From the NCBI GenBank assembly GCA_963790795.1, contig CAWBPO010000001.1, forward strand, positions 204,073 to 268,072: a stretch of DNA of 64,000 nucleotides, written 5' to 3'. This stretch comes from an uncultured bacterium (GTDB lineage Bacteria; Patescibacteriota; Minisyncoccia; Minisyncoccales; RBG-13-42-11). Both the position numbers and the translations under genes were made by a program. Shown here piece by piece: positions 2,213 through 42,112 of this stretch (position 1 is its first letter; every line of letters starts with the position of its first letter). The notes beneath the pieces are model-generated. The model saw nothing but the letters and a program-made list of their open reading frames with translations, was not told where the DNA came from and did not search any database.

Positions 2213-2867
2213 ACAAGATTATAATCTAATTGCTGAAGATTTTTCAAGAACCCGTTGGAATATTTGGTCTGAGTTTGGCATTTTTAGAGATTATATTCAA
2301 GACGGAGACAAAGTTTTAGATGCAGGTTGCGGAAACGGTCGGCTTTTGGAATTGTTAAAAGACAAAAAAATTGATTATCTCGGTATTGATATTTCAGATA
2401 AACTGATAGAGTTGGCTAAGAAAAAATATCCCCAGAATAACTTTTTAATTGCCGACACTTTAAATTTACCATTTCCAGACGATAATTTCGATAAAGTTTT
2501 TTCAGTAGCTGTTTTACATACTATTCCTTCGTTTGAGTTTAGGGAAAAAGCATTGTTGGAGCTGAGAAGGGTTTTGAAGCCAGGCGGTATATTGCTGTTG
2601 ACGGTTTGGGATATTTTGCGTGCGAAAAATCTTTTTTTAGCTTTTAAACAATTTCTTCTAAAATTAATCGGAAAATCAAAATTAGATTTTGGAGATGCTT
2701 TTGTCTCTTGGGGTACAAAAACAAATAGATATTATCATTTTTTTACAAACAGAGAATTGAACACGTTAGTGAGTAAGGTCGGTTTTAAAGTAATTGGGAA
2801 AGGTGTTGCCCGGAACGAAAACAAAAAGCGTTCAAATGTTTATATAATTGCTAAAAAGCCCTCGTAG
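2172..2867 (+). CDS. Trm9/ALKBH8-like class I SAM-dependent methyltransferase
   Basis: YNLIAEDFSRTRWNIW, DAGCGNGRLL (motif I), LNLPFPDDNFD, SVAVLHTIPSFEFR, LKPGGILLLTVW and NRYYHFFTNREL parallel the yeast Trm9 signature blocks. ATG 2172 chosen; the 2052 extension would overlap elp3 and looks non-native. Confidence 0.8.
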   Translation: MDSNFAKYLLNKTKQDYNLIAEDFSRTRWNIWSEFGIFRDYIQDGDKVLDAGCGNGRLLELLKDKKIDYLGIDISDKLIELAKKKYPQNNFLIADTLNLPFPDDNFDKVFSVAVLHTIPSFEFREKALLELRRVLKPGGILLLTVWDILRAKNLFLAFKQFLLKLIGKSKLDFGDAFVSWGTKTNRYYHFFTNRELNTLVSKVGFKVIGKGVARNENKKRSNVYIIAKKPS

Positions 2868-2929
2868 TTTAATGGATAGAACATGAGTTTCCGGAACTCA
2901 AAATGCAGGTTCGATTCCTGCTGGGGGCA
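2858..2929 (+). tRNA. tRNA-Arg (anticodon CCG)
   Basis: Manual cloverleaf: acceptor GCCCTCG/TGGGGGC (two G-U pairs), D stem GTTT/GAAC, anticodon stem TGAGT/ACTCA with loop TTCCGGA, T arm GCAGG-TTCGATT-CCTGC, discriminator A. CCA is not encoded. Confidence 0.88.
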
Positions 2930-2944
2930 CTAGAATAAAGAATC

Positions 2945-3734: not shown

Positions 3735-3765
3735 AGGTCGTATATATAAAATACATTTTAAAAAT

Positions 3766-4029
3766 ATGGCAGACGAAAAAAAAGAAGGAAAATTAATAGG
3801 CAGAATTACCCACTTTTTCGGCAATATCGGAGTGGCGGTAATTGAGGTTTCAGACAGATTGAGAGCCGGCGATACTATCAGAATTGTCGGCGGAAACGTT
3901 GATTTCGAGGAAAAAGTTGACTCAATGGAAATGGACCATCAGAGAGTCAGTGAAGCTAAAAAAGGCAATTCTGTTGGCGTGAAGGTTTCCCAGAAAGTTC
4001 ACGAAGGATACAAGGTTTTCAGGATATAG
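3766..4029 (+). CDS. translation-elongation-factor-like beta-barrel domain protein (EF-Tu domain II-like)
   Basis: 87 aa. GRITHFFGNIGVAVIEV...GDTIRIVG...GNSVGVKV pattern is typical of stand-alone EF-Tu domain-2-like barrels. Confidence 0.6.
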   Translation: MADEKKEGKLIGRITHFFGNIGVAVIEVSDRLRAGDTIRIVGGNVDFEEKVDSMEMDHQRVSEAKKGNSVGVKVSQKVHEGYKVFRI

Positions 4030-4095
4030 ATAAAACATATTAGAGGTTATTTTTCCGTCTAATTTTCAGATGCCTCTTTTGGCAGATTTATTGGG

Positions 4096-14529: not shown

Positions 14530-14548
14530 ATTAATAATTTAATTTTTG

Positions 14549-14899
14549 TGGAGATGGCGGGATTGGACCCGCGTCTGAGGAGTTTTTCTGAAATAATTCT
14601 ACAGGTTTAGTTCAGTTTTTTAGAAAGCATAGAGTCTAAACTGAACAAAATATCTATACCCTGAATCCAATTATTTTTCAATAGTTTTTCCGGATTCTGA
14701 AAAAACCATTTATCTCGCTAAGTTTGACACTCGATTTTGCTAAGCGAGAATCAGCAAAACGAATGGCTCTGCTACTTATGCGTAAGCAAGAGCAGGTTGT
14801 TTGAATAAGTTGGCACTTATCCTTTTTGCCAGTTTTTGCAAGTTCTGACAACTTGACCTGATTATTTCAGTCCGCTTCTCATCGAAGCATTTCATCCCC
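14549..14899 (-). ncRNA. ssrA: tmRNA (SsrA)
   Basis: 5' GGGGATG pairs with 3' CATCTCC, including the G3:U pair. T-arm GCGGGTCCAATCCCGC. Tag reading frame 14776-14814: GCC AAC TTA TTC AAA CAA CCT GCT CTT GCT TAC GCA TAA = ANLFKQPALAYA*. Confidence 0.9.
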
Positions 14900-34535: not shown

Positions 34536-36158
34536 ATGGATGAACTCCTTTCAAAAGAAGGCGGGAAGAAAATTATCTTATTGGGCAACGAAGCAATTGT
34601 TAGAGGCGCCTTGGAAGTAGGCGTCAATTTTGTTTCAACTTATCCTGGTACTCCGGCTTCTGAAATCGGCAACACTTTCTTCAAAATTGCCAAAACAGCT
34701 GGAGTTTACTTTGAATTCTCAACTAATGAAAAAGTGGCTTTGGAAGCTGGCATAGGTGCCAGTTTTTCCGGTTTGAAAACTTTGGTGGCCATGAAGAACT
34801 TCGGTTTGAACGTTTGTTTAGACGCTTTAATTCCTTTTGTTTATACCGGAACCAAAGGGCCGACAGTTATTATCGTTGCTGATGACCCTTCTTGCCATAG
34901 TTCAGCCCAGTCAGAAGAAAATACCAGGCCCGTGGATAATCTTATCCATATACCGATTTTAGAACCGTCAGACCCGCAAGAATGTCTGGATTTTGTAAAA
35001 CTAGGTTTCAAGATATCAGAGAAGTTCAATATTCCGGTAATGATAAGGACAACTACCAGAGTGGCCCACCAGAAAATGCCGGTTAGAATCTCAAATCTCA
35101 AACCTCAAGTTTTGAAAAAAGGAGAATTTGTAAAAGATACAAAAAGATTTGTCACTTTGCCGCCAAGAGTTCTGGAAATGAAAAAGGAGCTGTTTGAGAA
35201 GATAGAAAAGATTAGAAGTTTTTCTGAGAATCTATTAAAGGTTGAGGGTAAGAAGCAAAAAACAGGCATTATTACTTCTGGTGTTTCTTATCTATATGTA
35301 AAAGAAGCATTAGCAGAGCTGAAATTGGATTTACCTGTTTTGAAACTTACTTTTTCCTATCCTTTAGCAGAAAGAAAGATAAAAGAATTCATCAAGAATC
35401 TTAAAAATGTTTTAGTGGTTGAAGAACTGGAAGCTCATTTGGAAAAAGAAGTTGAAAGATTGGCAAAACAAGTCAATTGCAAGTTAGAGATTTTCGGCAA
35501 AGATTTGCTGCCAGTAGTTGGAGAATTAAAGCCAGAATATGTAATTGAAGCTGTCGCAAAAATAACTGGCAGAAAATATAAATCTAGAAAGTATGATTTT
35601 AAATCTTTAAAACGTTCTCCGCAGCTTTGCCCTGGATGCCCTTATTGGTTGGTTGTTTCAGCCATTAAAAAAGCAGTTGACGTGAATAAGGTTATATTCG
35701 GCGGAGAAATAGGCTGTTATATGCTTTTTGGCAACCAGCCCATTAATCTGCAGGATTATTTGTCCTGTATGGGTTCTTCAGTGGGAATCGCCCACGGCAT
35801 AAAAAAGGCCACTTCCCAGAAGCTGATTACTTTTGTCGGAGATTCTTCTTTCTTTCATTCTGGCATTCCAGCTTTAATAAACACTGTTTTCAACAAATCA
35901 AATCCCTTAATCATTATTTTGAACAATGAAACCACTGCCATGACTGGCCACCAGCCTCATCCTGTTTCTGTTGGCACAGAGACAGGTATCAGTATTGAGA
36001 AATTAGTCAGGGCTTGCGGTGTAAAATACGTCAAAACAATTGACCAGATAAACCAGGAAGAATTTATAAATACGGTAAAAGAGTTTGTAGTAAAAGACGA
36101 AGTTTCCGTAATTATCGCCAAACATCCTTGCAAATTCGTTATTCCAAAAAATGCCTAA
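34536..36158 (+). CDS. iorA: indolepyruvate/2-oxoacid:ferredoxin oxidoreductase alpha-like subunit (TPP-binding)
   Basis: GNEAIVRGALEVGV, YPGTPASEI, CPGCPY and GDSSFFHSG. No C-terminal di-cluster ferredoxin motif is visible. Confidence 0.75.
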   Translation: MDELLSKEGGKKIILLGNEAIVRGALEVGVNFVSTYPGTPASEIGNTFFKIAKTAGVYFEFSTNEKVALEAGIGASFSGLKTLVAMKNFGLNVCLDALIPFVYTGTKGPTVIIVADDPSCHSSAQSEENTRPVDNLIHIPILEPSDPQECLDFVKLGFKISEKFNIPVMIRTTTRVAHQKMPVRISNLKPQVLKKGEFVKDTKRFVTLPPRVLEMKKELFEKIEKIRSFSENLLKVEGKKQKTGIITSGVSYLYVKEALAELKLDLPVLKLTFSYPLAERKIKEFIKNLKNVLVVEELEAHLEKEVERLAKQVNCKLEIFGKDLLPVVGELKPEYVIEAVAKITGRKYKSRKYDFKSLKRSPQLCPGCPYWLVVSAIKKAVDVNKVIFGGEIGCYMLFGNQPINLQDYLSCMGSSVGIAHGIKKATSQKLITFVGDSSFFHSGIPALINTVFNKSNPLIIILNNETTAMTGHQPHPVSVGTETGISIEKLVRACGVKYVKTIDQINQEEFINTVKEFVVKDEVSVIIAKHPCKFVIPKNA

Positions 36159-38036: not shown

Positions 38037-39029
38037 ATGTCAAAAGCTAAAAAAATAGTTGTTATCGGAGGCGGAACAGGTTCTTTTACGGTTCTTTCCG
38101 GATTGAAGAAATATCCGGTTGACCTTTCAGCCGTTGTTTCCATGACTGATTCAGGAGGAAGCAACAGGGTTATTCGCGACGAATTGGGCTTGCTGCCGAC
38201 CAGCGATATAAGGCAGTGCTTTGTTGCTCTGGCTGAAGAAGAAAAAGAACAGTCCTTGAGAAAGCTTTTCATTTACCGTTTTTCAAAAGGAAACGGGTTG
38301 AATGGCATGACTTTCGGCAATTTGTTTTTGGCTGCTTTATCGGACATTTTCGGTTCGCAAATGGAAGCAATCAAGAAAACTAGCCAGATTCTTAAGATTA
38401 AAGGAAGGATTTTGCCGGTGACCCTGACTGATTCAAATTTGGTAGCAGTTTATGAAAACGGAAAGAAAGTCATCGGAGAACATTTAATTGACGAACCGAA
38501 GCACAGCGGCAAATTAAAAATTAAGAAAGTTTTTTTGAAGCCGAAAGCTAAAATTTATCATGAAGTAAAAAAGGCAATTTTAAACGCAGATTTAGTTGTT
38601 ATTGGGCCTGGCGATTTGTACACCAGCATAATAGCCGGTTTGCTGACAGAAGGAATTGCCAATACTCTTAAAAAAACCAAGGCCAAAGTAGCTTATATCA
38701 TGAACTTAATGACAAGATACGGCCAGACATTCGGCTTTACTGCCAAAGATCATATTCAGTCTTTGGAAAAATATTTAGGATGTGATTGTTTGGATTATGT
38801 TTTGGTTAACACCAAACCCATTTCAAAGAGCGCTTTGGTAAAATACAAGAAAATGAAGGAGTTTCCGGTGATTGACGATTTAAAAGACAGCTATTTTGAA
38901 GTAATCAGGAGAGATTTTTTAAGCAAAAAAGAAACAAAACACGTTCCGGGAGACATTTTGAAAAGAAGCCTTATTCGTCACGATTCCAATAAATTAGCAA
39001 AAGCTTTATTCAAACTATGCAAGCAGTAA
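38037..39029 (+). CDS. YvcK/CofD-family (UPF0052, gluconeogenesis-factor-like) protein
   Basis: [20 protein letters not shown] and MTDSGGS. Confidence 0.82.
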
Positions 39030-40243
39030 TTTTGGCAGCGGGCGAATCTTCTCGTTTTTGGCCGTTAAACAAAAAGCACAAATCTCTTTTTAAAATAATG
39101 GGGTGGCCTTTGATTTGGTATACGATTGAAAGCTTGAAGAAATCAGGCATTAAAGAGATTATTATTGTCCAAGGACCAGAAAAAGACATTGAAGAGGAAT
39201 TGAAAAGCTACGATTTTGGAATTGATATTAAATATGTTGTTCAATCTGAGGCTAAAGGAATGGGCAATGCGCTTACTATGGCAGAAAAGTTAATTGACGG
39301 TCCATTTTTTGTCCTTAATGCTCATAAAGTTAATGTTGGAGGGTTTGTCAAACCGATGACAGAAAAATCTAAGGATGGGCTCGTATTATTAGGGACAAAA
39401 ACAGACCAGCCCTGGCTTTACGGCATATTAGGGCTTGAAGGCGACAAAGTAAAAAGCTTAGTTGAAAAGCCGGAAAAAGGCAGCATTTCGTCAGGCGTTA
39501 AAGCAGCCGGCATTTATCTGCTGCCTAAAAAGTTTTTTGAATATTATAAAAAAGTGTCTGAGCATCAATATTCTTTTGAGGACGCTTTAAATCTTTCTTT
39601 TAAGGAAAACGAAGCTAAAGTAGTTATTATTGATAAAGAAGTGCCTTGTAAGTATCCCTGGCATTTATTTGAGATATCAAAGCTGTTGATGAATCAGTAC
39701 CTGAAACTTCATATTGCTAAGTCAGCTAAGATTGCCAAAAATGTAACAATTGAGGGAAATGTATTTATCGGCGAGAATACCAGAATCTTTGAAAACGCCG
39801 TTATCAAAGGGCCTTGCTATATCGGAGATAATTGTATTGTCGGCAACAACTCTTTAATTAGGGATTATTCCAATCTGGAAAACGAAGTTTTAATCGGCGC
39901 TTTTGCTGAAGTAGCTCGTTCAATCTTTCAACAAGGTATTCATGTCCATTCTGGATATTTTGGCGATTCAATTTTTGGGCAGGGTTGCCTTGTTGGAGCG
40001 GGAATGATTACTGCCAATGTCAGGATTGACAGAGGAGAGATAAAGGTAAAGCCAGAAATAAACACAGGATTGAATTCTTTGGGAGCGATTGTCGGCAAAA
40101 ACACTAAAATCGGCATCAGGTGCTCTTTGATGCCTGGCGTTTTGATCGGTTCTGACTGCTTTATCGGGCCAAATTCCGTTGTTTTTGAAAATATCGAGGA
40201 TAAGACAACTTTTTATACCGAATTCAGAGGAATTAAAAGATAA
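39017..40243 (+). CDS. sugar-phosphate nucleotidyltransferase with C-terminal left-handed beta-helix (GlmU/RmlA-like)
   Basis: [16 protein letters not shown]-terminal motif and hexapeptide repeats in the C-terminal half. Confidence 0.8.
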
Positions 40244-40254
40244 ATTTTTTTGTC

Positions 40255-40283
40255 TTGACAAGAGTTTGTTTTTTTAATATTCT
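40255..40283 (+). promoter_or_regulatory. sigma70-like promoter (TTGACA-17 nt-TATTCT, overlapping TAATAT)
   Basis: TTGACA at 40255-40260, 12 nt after the upstream stop codon. -10 at 40275-40283. Confidence 0.45.
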
Positions 40284-40289
40284 GATTAC

Positions 40290-40649
40290 ATAGTTCGTCA
40301 GTTTCTTCTTGGTACGGGCCGCCAGATTCATCGGCAAAAGTTTGCCAGATATGGTCATAGATTGACCTGGCCCACAGCTCGTTAAGAGCCCATTGTCGCA
40401 GGGTTTCCCTGCATCAGCGCGAGGAGCAGTCCTTGTCTTTCCAAATATTGGGAGAAGAGGAGGATGTAGATAGTTCGTTTGCAGACAGGGCTGCTCCCCC
40501 AAAGCACTTTTATTTAAGGGAGGTGATGCCTTTGAATGTACCATAATGGCCGTTTCGGCCAAAATTTATCCAGACCACTACTGAGCTGGTAGGCGCATCC
40601 CATTAAGTAAGCCCTGCTGTATGTTTACGCAGCAGGGTTCTTTTTTATT
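40290..40649 (+). ncRNA. orphan structured RNA candidate (about 360 nt), class unknown
   Basis: GC-richer than its flanks and without a credible ORF. Has its own promoter and a strong terminator. Local hairpins at 40333-40346, 40353-40367, 40398-40412 and 40548-40560. Long-range helix of 15 bp with one bulge: 40423-40438 with 40483-40497. Confidence 0.5.
40612..40649 (+). terminator. intrinsic terminator
   Basis: CCCTGCTGT (40612-40620) pairs with GCAGCAGGG (40629-40637), followed by TTCTTTTTTATT. Confidence 0.75.
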
Positions 40650-40665
40650 ATTTTAAGCCGCGCTA

Positions 40666-40693
40666 TTGACAAAAAGCTCTGATTTAGTATAAT
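40666..40693 (+). promoter_or_regulatory. consensus sigma70 promoter (TTGACA-16 nt-TATAAT)
   Basis: TTGACA at 40666-40671 and TATAAT at 40688-40693. The leader contains an SD (AAGGAG, 40711-40716) followed by an ATG-TGA start-stop at 40726-40731. Confidence 0.55.
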
Positions 40694-40775
40694 AAATTAG
40701 TTTCTTTTGAAAGGAGAAATAGAGAATGTGATAGTTAGTTATTAATAGTTCTATAGAAAATAAAGGAGGTGCAAA

Positions 40776-41333
40776 GTGAATTCAGGAACTAAATGGGCTC
40801 TAGTAATCTTTGGAGTAGTGATTGTTCTCTTGCTCTTTGGCTTTCTTGTTCCGGCCAAACAGGAAGCCTATACTGTTCAGGAACCCTATGACGCTCAAGA
40901 AGCCTATACTGTTCAGGAACCCTATGAAGTCATAGAGACTTATACCGAAAAAGAGCCGTATGAGGCTACGGAATACTATACGGCGTATGTGCCATACACT
41001 TATCGGGTTATTTGCGGCCAAGATTGCCGTCCAGGACCAGGACCAGGACCAGGACCAGGGCCAGGACCAGGGCCAGGACCAGGACCAGGACCCAATCCAC
41101 ATCCAGGACCAGGACCAGGGCCAGGGCCACAATGTGTCCCTCGTTATTGTACAGAGCAGGGAATTCAAGCCGTAACACAGAGTCGGACCGTCACAAAGTA
41201 CCGGGACGTTGAGAAACAGAGGACTGTTACTAAATATAAGGAGGTAACAAAGTACCAAACCGTCACAAAGTACAGACCTGTTCCTCATTATCGAATGGTC
41301 CCTCTATTTAGCTCCACGCCGCCATCCAATTGA
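40776..41333 (+). CDS. membrane-anchored tandem-repeat protein with (Pro-Gly)n tract
   Basis: GTG start 5 nt after AAGGAGGT. One TM helix. Four ExYTxxEPYxxx repeats, then C...C-(PG)13-PNPH-(PG)5-C...C, then TVTKY(R/K/Q) repeats. GC-richer than the genome background. Confidence 0.7.
   Translation: MNSGTKWALVIFGVVIVLLLFGFLVPAKQEAYTVQEPYDAQEAYTVQEPYEVIETYTEKEPYEATEYYTAYVPYTYRVICGQDCRPGPGPGPGPGPGPGPGPGPGPNPHPGPGPGPGPQCVPRYCTEQGIQAVTQSRTVTKYRDVEKQRTVTKYKEVTKYQTVTKYRPVPHYRMVPLFSSTPPSN
40863..40927 (+). repeat. 36-nt-period tandem duplication inside the CDS
   Basis: GAAGCCTATACTGTTCAGGAACCCTATGA occurs identically at 40863-40891 and 40899-40927. Confidence 0.9.
41031..41128 (+). repeat. (CCAGGA/CCAGGG)n hexanucleotide simple-sequence repeat encoding (PG)n
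   Basis: Two blocks, 41031-41092 and 41103-41128, of CCAGGN units. Confidence 0.95.
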
Positions 41334-42025: not shown

Positions 42026-42112
42026 TGGTGCCTGGGGTGGGACTCGAACCCACACGAGATTGCTCTCATACGATTTTGAGTCGTACGCGTAAACCAATTC
42101 CGCCACCCAGGC
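42026..42112 (-). tRNA. tRNA-Leu (anticodon CAA), class II long variable arm, CCA encoded
   Basis: The reverse complement reads GCCTGGGTGGCGGAATTGG...TACGA-CTCAAAA-TCGTA...GGGTTCGAGTCCCACCCCAGGCACCA. Confidence 0.9.

Follow-up and report, generated by a model that had tools for sequence, protein, structure and literature searches.

A modular structured RNA of no known family, with an invariant ribosome-binding-site-like motif, in a narrow clade of Patescibacteria

The 64-kb stretch of patescibacterial DNA analyzed here (the window) is about 95% coding, which raises the question of what occupies its largest non-coding stretch, a gap of 532 nt (40244-40775) between the end of a glmU-like nucleotidyltransferase/hexapeptide gene at 40243 and the start, at 40776, of a gene for a 185-aa membrane protein with EPY, PG, and TVTKYR repeats (p185). 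A first reading of the sequence by a model (the original prediction) had placed a self-contained structured RNA of unrecognizable class in this gap, and this proposal was borne out: the gap contains a conserved structured non-coding RNA of no known family and of modular build, for which homologs but no Rfam match were found and in which two helices covary. The explanation favored here, with a probability of about 0.5, is that of a stand-alone, terminator-ended regulatory RNA that would work through a masked ribosome-binding site (RBS) and engage ribosomes.

Homologous loci were located via the flanking proteins and yielded eight distinct versions of the region, that of the window included, with the order glmU-like gene, RNA, and p185 homolog wherever a contig spans both flanks. 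The version closest to the window (L023, ~90% identical) is cut by a contig end, and L022 comprises only the 5′ 150 nt. The other versions are L001 (identical to L011), L003 (whose RNA is the same in L004, L012, and L024), L013 (obtained in the same protein look-up as L014-L017), and one further distinct version each in L026 and L027. The source organism is a Patescibacterium whose nearest named proteins are from Candidatus Nealsonbacteria, and the family appears to be confined to the glmU-like/p185 interval in a narrow Patescibacteria clade whose closest named relatives are the same Candidatus Nealsonbacteria.

A consensus scan placed a promoter-like site (P1) past the glmU-like stop codon and an intrinsic terminator downstream of it (Table 1). 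Transcription from P1 is inferred to start at about 40289-40291, and positions 40255-40649 would form a separate transcription unit that gives rise to a non-coding, GC-rich, multi-hairpin RNA of ~360 nt on the plus strand. Both signals had been predicted and both are present, although the dimensions had to be revised to a distance of 11 nt (instead of 12 nt) between stop codon and promoter and a terminator stem of 11 bp (instead of 9 bp). A P1 equivalent with a perfect TTGACA box, a 16-17-nt spacer, and TAnnnT lies directly past the glmU-like stop in L001, L003, L013, L026, and L027, and a GC-rich hairpin with a U-run is found at the terminator position in every homolog. The separate consensus promoter foreseen for the next gene (P2, 40666-40693) matches the consensus at 12/12 positions and scores 11-12/12 in all five other lineages, and the block from P2 to the p185 start has 87% identity to L001, above that of the RNA itself. 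The arrangement of a small RNA (sRNA) gene, with its own promoter and intrinsic terminator, is therefore recognizable by consensus matches that are kept in six lineages, as judged from sequence signals alone. The gap is also GC-richer than its surroundings, as first noted, with a G + C content of 0.49-0.52 at 40300-40600 versus 0.32-0.43 around it, and of 0.48 in the RNA body versus 0.38 in the flanks. The runner-up among the gaps of the window (3735-4095) contains an open reading frame (ORF) of ~87 aa (MADEKKEGKLIGRITHFFGNIGVAVIEV..., 3767-4030) that was overlooked by the 110-aa ORF listing, and is coding.

Several lines of evidence indicate that the region encodes an RNA rather than a protein. 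A tblastx comparison with all related loci matched only the syntenic RNA regions, and did so equally across all six frames. Reading frames are broken by indels both between the window and L023 (1, 1, 2, and 3 nt) and between L013 and L027 (1, 2, 3, and 14 nt). For the 109-aa minus-strand ORF at 40233-40562, neither a Pfam match nor a homolog among 5.8 billion proteins was found; no ORF of at least 80 aa exists within the RNA region of L001, and no gene was called in that of L027. A 121-aa minus-strand ORF was called in L013-L017, whose RNA cannot be aligned with the window RNA by blastn. Checks for a pseudogene or a coding region, which had been named as possible refutations, revealed neither protein-level similarity nor frame-specific conservation. 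The G + C content exceeds that of the flanks in six of six full-length versions by 4-17 points (0.43-0.50 vs 0.33-0.40). The plus strand of the window folds with a minimum free energy (MFE) of -125.7 kcal/mol (z = -3.5, or -4.3 against our own dinucleotide shuffles), all six lineages fold better than shuffles (z of -2.2 to -5.6), and the plus strand is more stable than the minus strand in six of six, which fits G.U pairs on the plus strand. Compensatory helix changes in the homologs and the lack of a conserved reading frame complete the picture of a structured non-coding RNA.

The compensatory changes are concentrated in two conserved elements, hairpin H-a and the P-long domain. Across six lineages H-a shows both-side changes at four of its six pairs (e.g., GCAGGAUC/GAUCCUGC in L026). 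The 10-bp base stem of P-long is fully canonical in six lineages, with exchanges GC<->AU, AU<->GC, GC<->AU, and CG<->UA at positions 2-5 and UG/CG/UA at position 8, and the long helix originally proposed between 40423-38 and 40483-97 is thus real and covaries. The P-long domain varies between 56 and 75 nt among lineages and contains a purine-rich junction, GAGGAGGAU. In a model-based alignment of six lineages, evaluated over 20 pairs with 500 shuffles and slid controls, 85.8% of the cells were paired, compared with 74% in the shuffles (none of the 500 reached the observed value) and 39-59% in the slid controls; both-side changes occurred at 11 of the 20 pairs, where 4.1 were expected (0/500 shuffles).

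Outside this core the structure is more variable. All four local hairpins that had been proposed appear in the MFE fold (40333-46, 40353-67, 40398-412, and 40548-60). The 5′ domain, which holds the first two, is rearranged in L001 and absent from L026, so that its structure is not consistently conserved; an L023 substitution at 40372 retains a pair of this domain as G.U. The 3′ hairpins of the long forms L003, L013, and L027 constitute a larger conserved domain with compensatory changes of its own. The linker sequence CCCCAAAGCAC is common to the window and L001 (in L023 it lacks one A), and AAAGCAC also occurs in L003. Among the ten substitutions between L023 and the window that fall in predicted stems, six keep the pairing; two of the four breaking ones lie in GGUAC/GUACC (40311-15/40538-42), a proposed closing helix that was rejected for being broken in this closest relative (GCAAC). 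The duplicated ATAGTTCGT motif of the original prediction is probably a product of chance, being replaced by TATAGTTTA and GATATTTCG in L023. The further pairing CAGCUC/GAGCUG (40375-80/40583-88) is retained as tentative, with one compensatory change in L001 (CAGUU/AACUG) read by eye from the alignment. An anti-terminator swap, in which GCAGGG/CCCUGC of H-a would pair with the terminator, is possible in the window and L001; it was not seen in L003, L013, and L027 and was not adopted.

The sole invariant sequence of the RNA is AAGG(G)AGGUGAUGC at 40516-40529, an RBS-like motif which, like the mini-ORF behind it, the first reading had missed. GGUGAUG is invariant, and GG.GGUGAUG is found in all seven lineages that reach the motif. 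If the 3′ tail of the 16S rRNA is assumed to be canonical (...GAUCACCUCCUU; duplexes were computed with GAUCACCUCCUUU), the motif pairs with it at -18.8 kcal/mol, the strongest such duplex on both strands of the 64-kb window, in which GGAGGTGA has a single occurrence. Only 5 of 57 genes pair with the assumed tail at -8 kcal/mol or below (median -1.5). Clear Shine-Dalgarno sequences (SDs) precede p185 (40776), an unknown 119-aa protein (13050), a GGDEF protein (46428), GreA (6651), and TP_methylase (27310), the strongest being that of the adjoining p185 (-15.4). A TATAAT-like box precedes the ATG by 6-12 nt in many genes (e.g., at 34536, 46965(-), 47681, 54697, and 58644), which suggests leaderless or very-short-leader mRNAs. 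In every lineage a start codon lies 8-11 nt past the motif and opens an ORF of 3-14 codons, in which conservation of the peptide ends at ~3 codons (MNVP, MNAT, MIAV, MNVLTLS, MIV, MIAFCRRLQ, and MIVSFWLRQKWFTS).

Further SD-like sequences occur elsewhere in the family. The unpaired P-long junction of the window contains such a stretch at 40448-40470, which pairs with the assumed 16S tail at -12.0 kcal/mol and is kept in L023 and weaker in L001. In L001, L003, L013, L022, and L027 a second SD-like motif lies 20-90 nt from the inferred 5′ end; according to our own reading, it can pair with a downstream ACCU-type anti-SD in L003, L013, and L027 and is part of a local hairpin in L001. Past this motif, possible ORFs of 21-29 aa that start with MVxIR[SA]P are found at L001:6298-6384, L022:2531-2596, and L027:4437-4526 (MVSIRSPVVVDVLHRLAVPGHQ..., MVWIRAPVIAGVHRCAVPGNL, and MVGIRSPATTSCSAHRLCLG..., respectively). 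The sequences may also resemble CsrA-type GGA sites and, in the 5′ ORF of the relatives, a SecM/RAPP-like 'IRxP' arrest motif.

A candidate masking partner of the RBS-like motif is located directly 5′ of the terminator. This pyrimidine-rich, anti-SD-like element reads GGCGCAUCCC in the window, GCAUUUCACCCCC in L001, GGUAUCACUUCC in L003, CAUUACCUUCUC in L013, UUUCUUCCUUUU in L026, and CUCACCUCCUC in L027. In L001, L003, L013, and L027 no other part of the whole RNA pairs with the motif as well as this element (-13 to -18 kcal/mol); it ranks second in L026 and, among distinct segments, third in the window. A zone-rank test over six lineages gave a combined p of ~2.5e-5, with the lineages treated as independent, which overstates the case. 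For the long forms, RNAalifold predicts a motif:element helix of 12 pairs with G-C<->G.U changes. A 3′-proximal pyrimidine element complementary to the SD, as in the icaR and hbs mRNAs discussed below, is consequently present in the family and weak in the window copy.

According to the favored explanation, the RBS-like element would in a masked state be paired with the 3′ anti-SD-like element, closing the 3′ domain, whereas in an open state it would bind the anti-SD tail of the 30S subunit, and a few codons might be translated. The variable hairpin modules would supply stability and set the balance between the masked and the open state. A number of observations weigh against this explanation. 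In the window itself the motif:element duplex reaches only -10.7 kcal/mol, a value matched or beaten by 13% of the other zones, and the structural ensemble places the AGGUGAUG portion of the motif mostly in a hairpin loop. The organism's own 16S rRNA lies outside the window. Transcription of the RNA is deduced from nothing but promoter and terminator consensus matches, and the RNA could also arise as a 3′ untranslated region (3′ UTR), because no terminator separates it from the glmU-like gene. It always adjoins p185, which would fit a role in cis equally well, and some relatives possibly carry a 5′ ORF for a small protein. The RNA evolves faster than the neighboring genes: the flanking genes of L001 and L003 are 80-85% identical to those of the window, whereas the L001 RNA can be aligned only in patches at 74-82% and the L003 RNA was not detected by blastn with the window RNA despite 80% coding identity, which argues against a tightly constrained machine. 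Finally, as only eight distinct, mutually related sequences are available, the covariation statistics are weak in absolute terms.

Table 1. Positions in the window of the predicted elements of the RNA locus
Feature	Position	Strand	Description
Promoter-like site P1	40255..40283	+	TTGACA-17-TATTCT, 11 nt past the glmU-like TAA stop (consensus scan)
Body of the ~360-nt RNA (inferred)	40290..40648	+	From fold stability and GC
5′ domain	40316..40373	+	GGGCC/GGCCC closing hairpins 40333-46 and 40353-67 (MFE fold)
Small hairpin	40377..40389	+	GCUC-GUUAA-GAGC; window/L023 lineage only, deleted in L001, one pair broken in L023
Hairpin H-a	40398..40412	+	GCAGGG-UUU-CCCUGC; conserved core, predicted by RNAalifold
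P-long domain	40423..40497	+	Three-way junction; 10-15-bp closing helix (40423-38 with 40483-97) and two apical hairpins (RNAalifold)
C-rich linker	40498..40515	+	CCCAAAGCACUUUUAUUU; mostly unpaired (unpaired probability 0.6-0.9)
RBS-like motif	40516..40529	+	AAGGGAGGUGAUGC; complementary to canonical 16S 3′ tail
Mini-ORF	40532..40546	+	UUG-AAU-GUA-CCA-UAA; starts 8 nt past GGAGG (read from sequence)
3′ hairpin	40548..40560	+	GGCCG-UUU-CGGCC; lineage-specific 3′ module, identical in L023, absent from L001
Pre-terminator anti-SD-like element	40592..40601	+	GGCGCAUCCC; pyrimidine-rich, weak version
Intrinsic terminator	40610..40646	+	11-bp stem 40610-40639, AGCCCUGCUG...CAGCAGGGUU, then U6 (consensus scan)
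Promoter P2 of the next gene	40666..40693	+	TTGACA-16-TATAAT; outside the RNA, marks its 3′ boundary

Across the family P1 and P2 are 338-712 nt apart, and the modular RNA is about 300-680 nt long. The loci L005-L010, whose glmU-like protein is 72% identical to that of the window, have neither p185 nor the RNA. P1 is also kept in the RNA-less L010, and L005 has CTGACA in its place. At L005:4255-4330 and L010:4250-4330 a 9-bp hairpin with a U-run, located shortly before the next gene, is all that follows the promoter-like site; its strands are SD-like (GAAGG or GGAGG) and anti-SD-like (CCUUC or CCCCC). These relatives may preserve the same device in a minimal or ancestral form. The RNA is absent beside more distant p185 homologs in other contexts, and a search of the window and of unrelated loci with the covariance model R1 revealed no further copy. 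A metagenome scan with the conserved P2 promoter pattern returned only duplicates of L001 and L003, a genome scan with the glmU-like protein contributed one useful locus, and viral contigs scanned with the motif pattern yielded ordinary phage SD/start sites with R1 scores of 15-24 bits, compared with 86-152 bits for true members. With so narrow a distribution and such fast evolution, the family does not qualify as a universal housekeeping RNA.

The neighborhood of the RNA shows further peculiarities. In the p185 leader starting from P2, a hairpin is formed by UUUCUUUU (40701-08) with the SD-like AAAGGAGAAA (40710-19) and is followed by an AUG-UGA start-stop (40726-31); the arrangement is kept in L001, and L013 has AUG-GUC-UAA. 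Between L024:1-1230 and L003:2584-3835, RNA and P2 are 100% identical over ~520 nt, after which identity falls abruptly to 55-75% through p185 and tsaC. The p185 proteins of the two loci are only 60% identical, and p185 looks hypervariable. Either recombination with a breakpoint where the p185 leader begins or a chimeric assembly would account for the drop. Comparison of L001:2726-5650 with window positions 39019-39650 showed 80-85% identity in murA/cofD and tsaC/topA; blastn fails to align the middle of the L001 glmU-like gene, and in L001 cofD and glmU are separated by two additional genes (264 and 481 aa), making this locus a mosaic.

The main rival to a stand-alone RNA, and clearly the less likely of the two, is a cis-acting leader or attenuator of p185-tsaC, in which transcripts from P1 would end at the terminator or continue past it. 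What would decide between these outcomes is either the RBS-like motif, through the binding of a ribosome or translation of the mini-ORF, or a factor bound to the three-way junction. The RNA is indeed found upstream of the p185 homolog and in the same orientation in all six lineages with a downstream region, but in all six lineages terminator and p185 are separated by P2, a perfect and conserved sigma-70 promoter. Since the anti-SD element adjoins the terminator stem without overlapping it, unmasking would have no obvious effect on termination, and it is because of this lack of overlap and of the intervening promoter that the stand-alone RNA is favored. P1 and the SD-like:anti-SD-like hairpin with its U-run in the RNA-less L005 and L010 resemble a minimal attenuator, and the p185 leader likewise has an SD:anti-SD hairpin and a start-stop of its own; in the RNA, however, the mini-ORF ends 60-230 nt before the terminator, a conserved anti-terminator pairing was not found, and the sequence is too variable for a ligand-sensing aptamer. 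For a role of the stand-alone RNA in trans, p185 gave no signal as a target, the duplex of the RNA with its translation initiation region ranking 36th of 57 genes.

About as tentative as the leader is the idea of a new class of large bacterial RNA, stable and structured, that would target the ribosome itself by presenting, and being able to mask, a near-perfect complement of the 16S 3′ tail in a CPR bacterium with otherwise very little SD-dependent initiation. It might act as a decoy or sensor of 30S subunits whose anti-SD is free, or as a platform on which they dock; alternatively, its SD/anti-SD helix and the hairpin before it might imitate the 16S 3′ end, with a ribosomal protein or maturation factor as the partner.

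It is rather improbable that the RNA is chiefly an mRNA, or a dual-function RNA, for tiny peptides encoded by the 4-codon mini-ORF of the window and by the 21-29-aa 5′ ORF of some relatives. A strong SD with a start codon 8-11 nt further on in every lineage, first two to three codons that are alike (M-I/N-V/A), and the MVxIR[SA]P...HR pattern shared by the 5′ ORFs of L001, L022, and L027 would be expected of a translated RNA, and dual-function sRNAs such as RNAIII and SR1 provide a precedent (PMC12612679). The mini-ORF has only 3-14 codons, however, two of its four codons differ between the window and the ~90%-identical L023, and more than 85% of the RNA belongs to no ORF and is nevertheless GC-rich and structured. 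Of the 5′ ORF, L003 and L013 retain no more than 8-12 aa, and the window, L023, and L026 have lost the module altogether. Between L001 and L022, 13 of 25 substitutions in the 5′ ORF fall on codon position 3 and one indel comprises an in-frame codon, but this codon-position bias is not significant (about p = 0.1 by our own estimate).

Slightly less probable still is that the RNA is not an independent gene but a long structured 3′ UTR of the cofD/glmU-like operon. The consensus scan placed no terminator in the interval from the glmU-like stop (40243) to the RNA, whose own terminator is the first one downstream of the operon. Against an exclusive origin of this kind stands P1, which has a perfect -35 box at fixed spacing in every RNA-bearing lineage and in the RNA-less L010 (CTGACA in L005); the two origins are mutually compatible. 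A non-functional spacer or decayed gene remnant is very unlikely: fast sequence turnover with modules gained and lost and the absence of the region from L005 and L010 would be in line with it, but a G + C content well above that of the flanks in an AT-rich genome that is 95% coding, the presence of compensatory changes, the lack of protein-level similarity in related loci or the protein database, and the one invariant motif are not.

Known RNA classes were searched for with Rfam 15. At the gathering threshold, only transfer-messenger RNA (tmRNA) and two tRNAs were matched in the whole window, namely tmRNA at 14546-14899 (-) with 125 bits, tRNA-Arg(CCG) at 2858-2930 (+), and tRNA-Leu(CAA) at 42026-42112 (-), and neither RNase P, signal recognition particle (SRP) RNA, nor 6S RNA was detected in the 64 kb. 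A permissive search of 40150-40800 gave nothing relevant at E ≤ 10 but only noise (a plastid 3′ UTR and a small nucleolar RNA), and the six homologous loci had no match at E ≤ 1. These results, which include the ROOL, GOLLD, HEARO, and raiA models, agree with the initial failure to match the region to RNase P, SRP, 6S, tmRNA, or common riboswitches. The suggestion that it might be a very divergent RNase P was not sustained, as GAGGAGCAGUCC pairs in a local covarying hairpin and no P4 pseudoknot is formed: the CR-I-like GGAGCAGUCC (40423-32) pairs locally with GGGCUGCUCC (40488-97), with compensatory changes in the five other lineages. RNase P RNA of types A and B was rejected for want of a covariance-model match and of the P4 strands. 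SRP RNA, 6S RNA, and tmRNA had no Rfam match at the region, and a 6S RNA would moreover be a single bubble hairpin of ~180-200 nt, whereas this RNA has a multi-domain fold of ~300-680 nt with two three-way junctions. Known riboswitches, T-box, the glmS ribozyme, and ribosomal protein leaders were likewise rejected (no Rfam match and no sequence-conserved core beyond the RBS-like motif), as were ROOL, GOLLD, HEARO, OLE, and raiA (no covariance-model match). A type I toxin mRNA was discarded since the ORFs are not transmembrane-like and no minus-strand promoter-like site lies inside the RNA; only SD masking is similar. In sum, the idea that a known RNA is present in very divergent form (RNase P, SRP, 6S, or another such as a riboswitch, ROOL, GOLLD, HEARO, OLE, or raiA) deserves hardly any credence, as it can point to a size in the right range and to the superficial likeness of GAGGAGCAGUCC to RNase P CR-I GAGGAAAGUCC, but is contradicted by the lack of Rfam matches, the local covarying nature of the RNase-P-like hairpin, a length and rapid sequence turnover unlike those of housekeeping RNAs, and the tmRNA already present elsewhere.

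Several known systems share features with the RNA, none of them being a homolog. STAB-SD sequences and related ribosome-protected 5′ stabilizers of Gram-positive mRNAs (cryIIIA, hbs) are SD-like sequences that bind the 16S tail and affect RNA stability rather than the making of protein. The SD-like motif that five relatives carry 20-90 nt from the inferred 5′ end recalls these stabilizers; the window RNA differs in having no 5′ motif, and its single motif is partly masked and lies ~230 nt from the 5′ end. In the icaR mRNA of Staphylococcus aureus the SD is masked by SD:anti-SD pairing between 5′ and 3′ UTR (PMC3868564), and in the hbs mRNA of B. subtilis a 3′-proximal anti-SD masks the SD through an interaction of both UTRs (PMC5737220). 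Common to these mRNAs and the RNA described here is an SD masked by a pyrimidine-rich anti-SD far downstream, near the 3′ terminator, which would link ribosome binding and RNA fate. However, icaR and hbs are ordinary mRNAs with full-length ORFs between the two elements, whereas here the intervening sequence consists only of a mini-ORF of 3-14 codons and structured non-coding modules, and the SD comes after 230-390 nt of structured RNA.

Large multi-hairpin regulatory or dual-function RNAs are exemplified by S. aureus RNAIII and B. subtilis SR1 (PMC12612679, PMC12310071). The RNA resembles them in its own promoter and terminator, a length of several hundred nt, many hairpins, quick evolution within one lineage, and an optional small ORF, but has no sequence or structural homology to them; its invariant element is an SD instead of an anti-SD seed, and no conserved single-stranded C-rich seed loops are apparent. 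A lone extended SD is also known from the rpsU gene of the SD-blind Bacteroidia, which encodes protein bS21 and has a shown autoregulatory loop (PMC9976891, PMC7797042). In both cases the genome makes little use of SDs and yet retains an unusually long one at a single locus, which implies a special regulatory use of the 16S tail, although the SD described here belongs to a non-coding RNA. Like OLE, GOLLD, ROOL, raiA, HEARO, and RNase P RNA, the RNA has a large, GC-rich, multi-domain fold in an AT-rich genome and was spotted as an oversized intergenic region; it differs from all of these by the lack of a covariance-model match, a far narrower distribution, and far less sequence conservation.

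To our knowledge, very few regulatory RNAs are known in the candidate phyla radiation (CPR)/Patescibacteria, and literature searches did not find a described CPR RNA of such kind. The previously unclassified, lineage-restricted structured RNA at the glmU-like/p185 locus is real, and a conserved non-coding unit of 300-680 nt is unlikely to be idle in these organisms because their genomes are tiny and densely packed. If it acts only as a local leader or stabilizer, its interest would be modest and lineage-specific. If, in contrast, the favored explanation of a stand-alone regulatory RNA is true and the 16S tail is engaged, the RNA would provide an entry to the organization and regulation of translation initiation in an SD-poor uncultured lineage, in which about 1 in 10 genes has a usable SD, and would bring to light a large RNA family with a ribosome-binding site as its conserved 'active site'.

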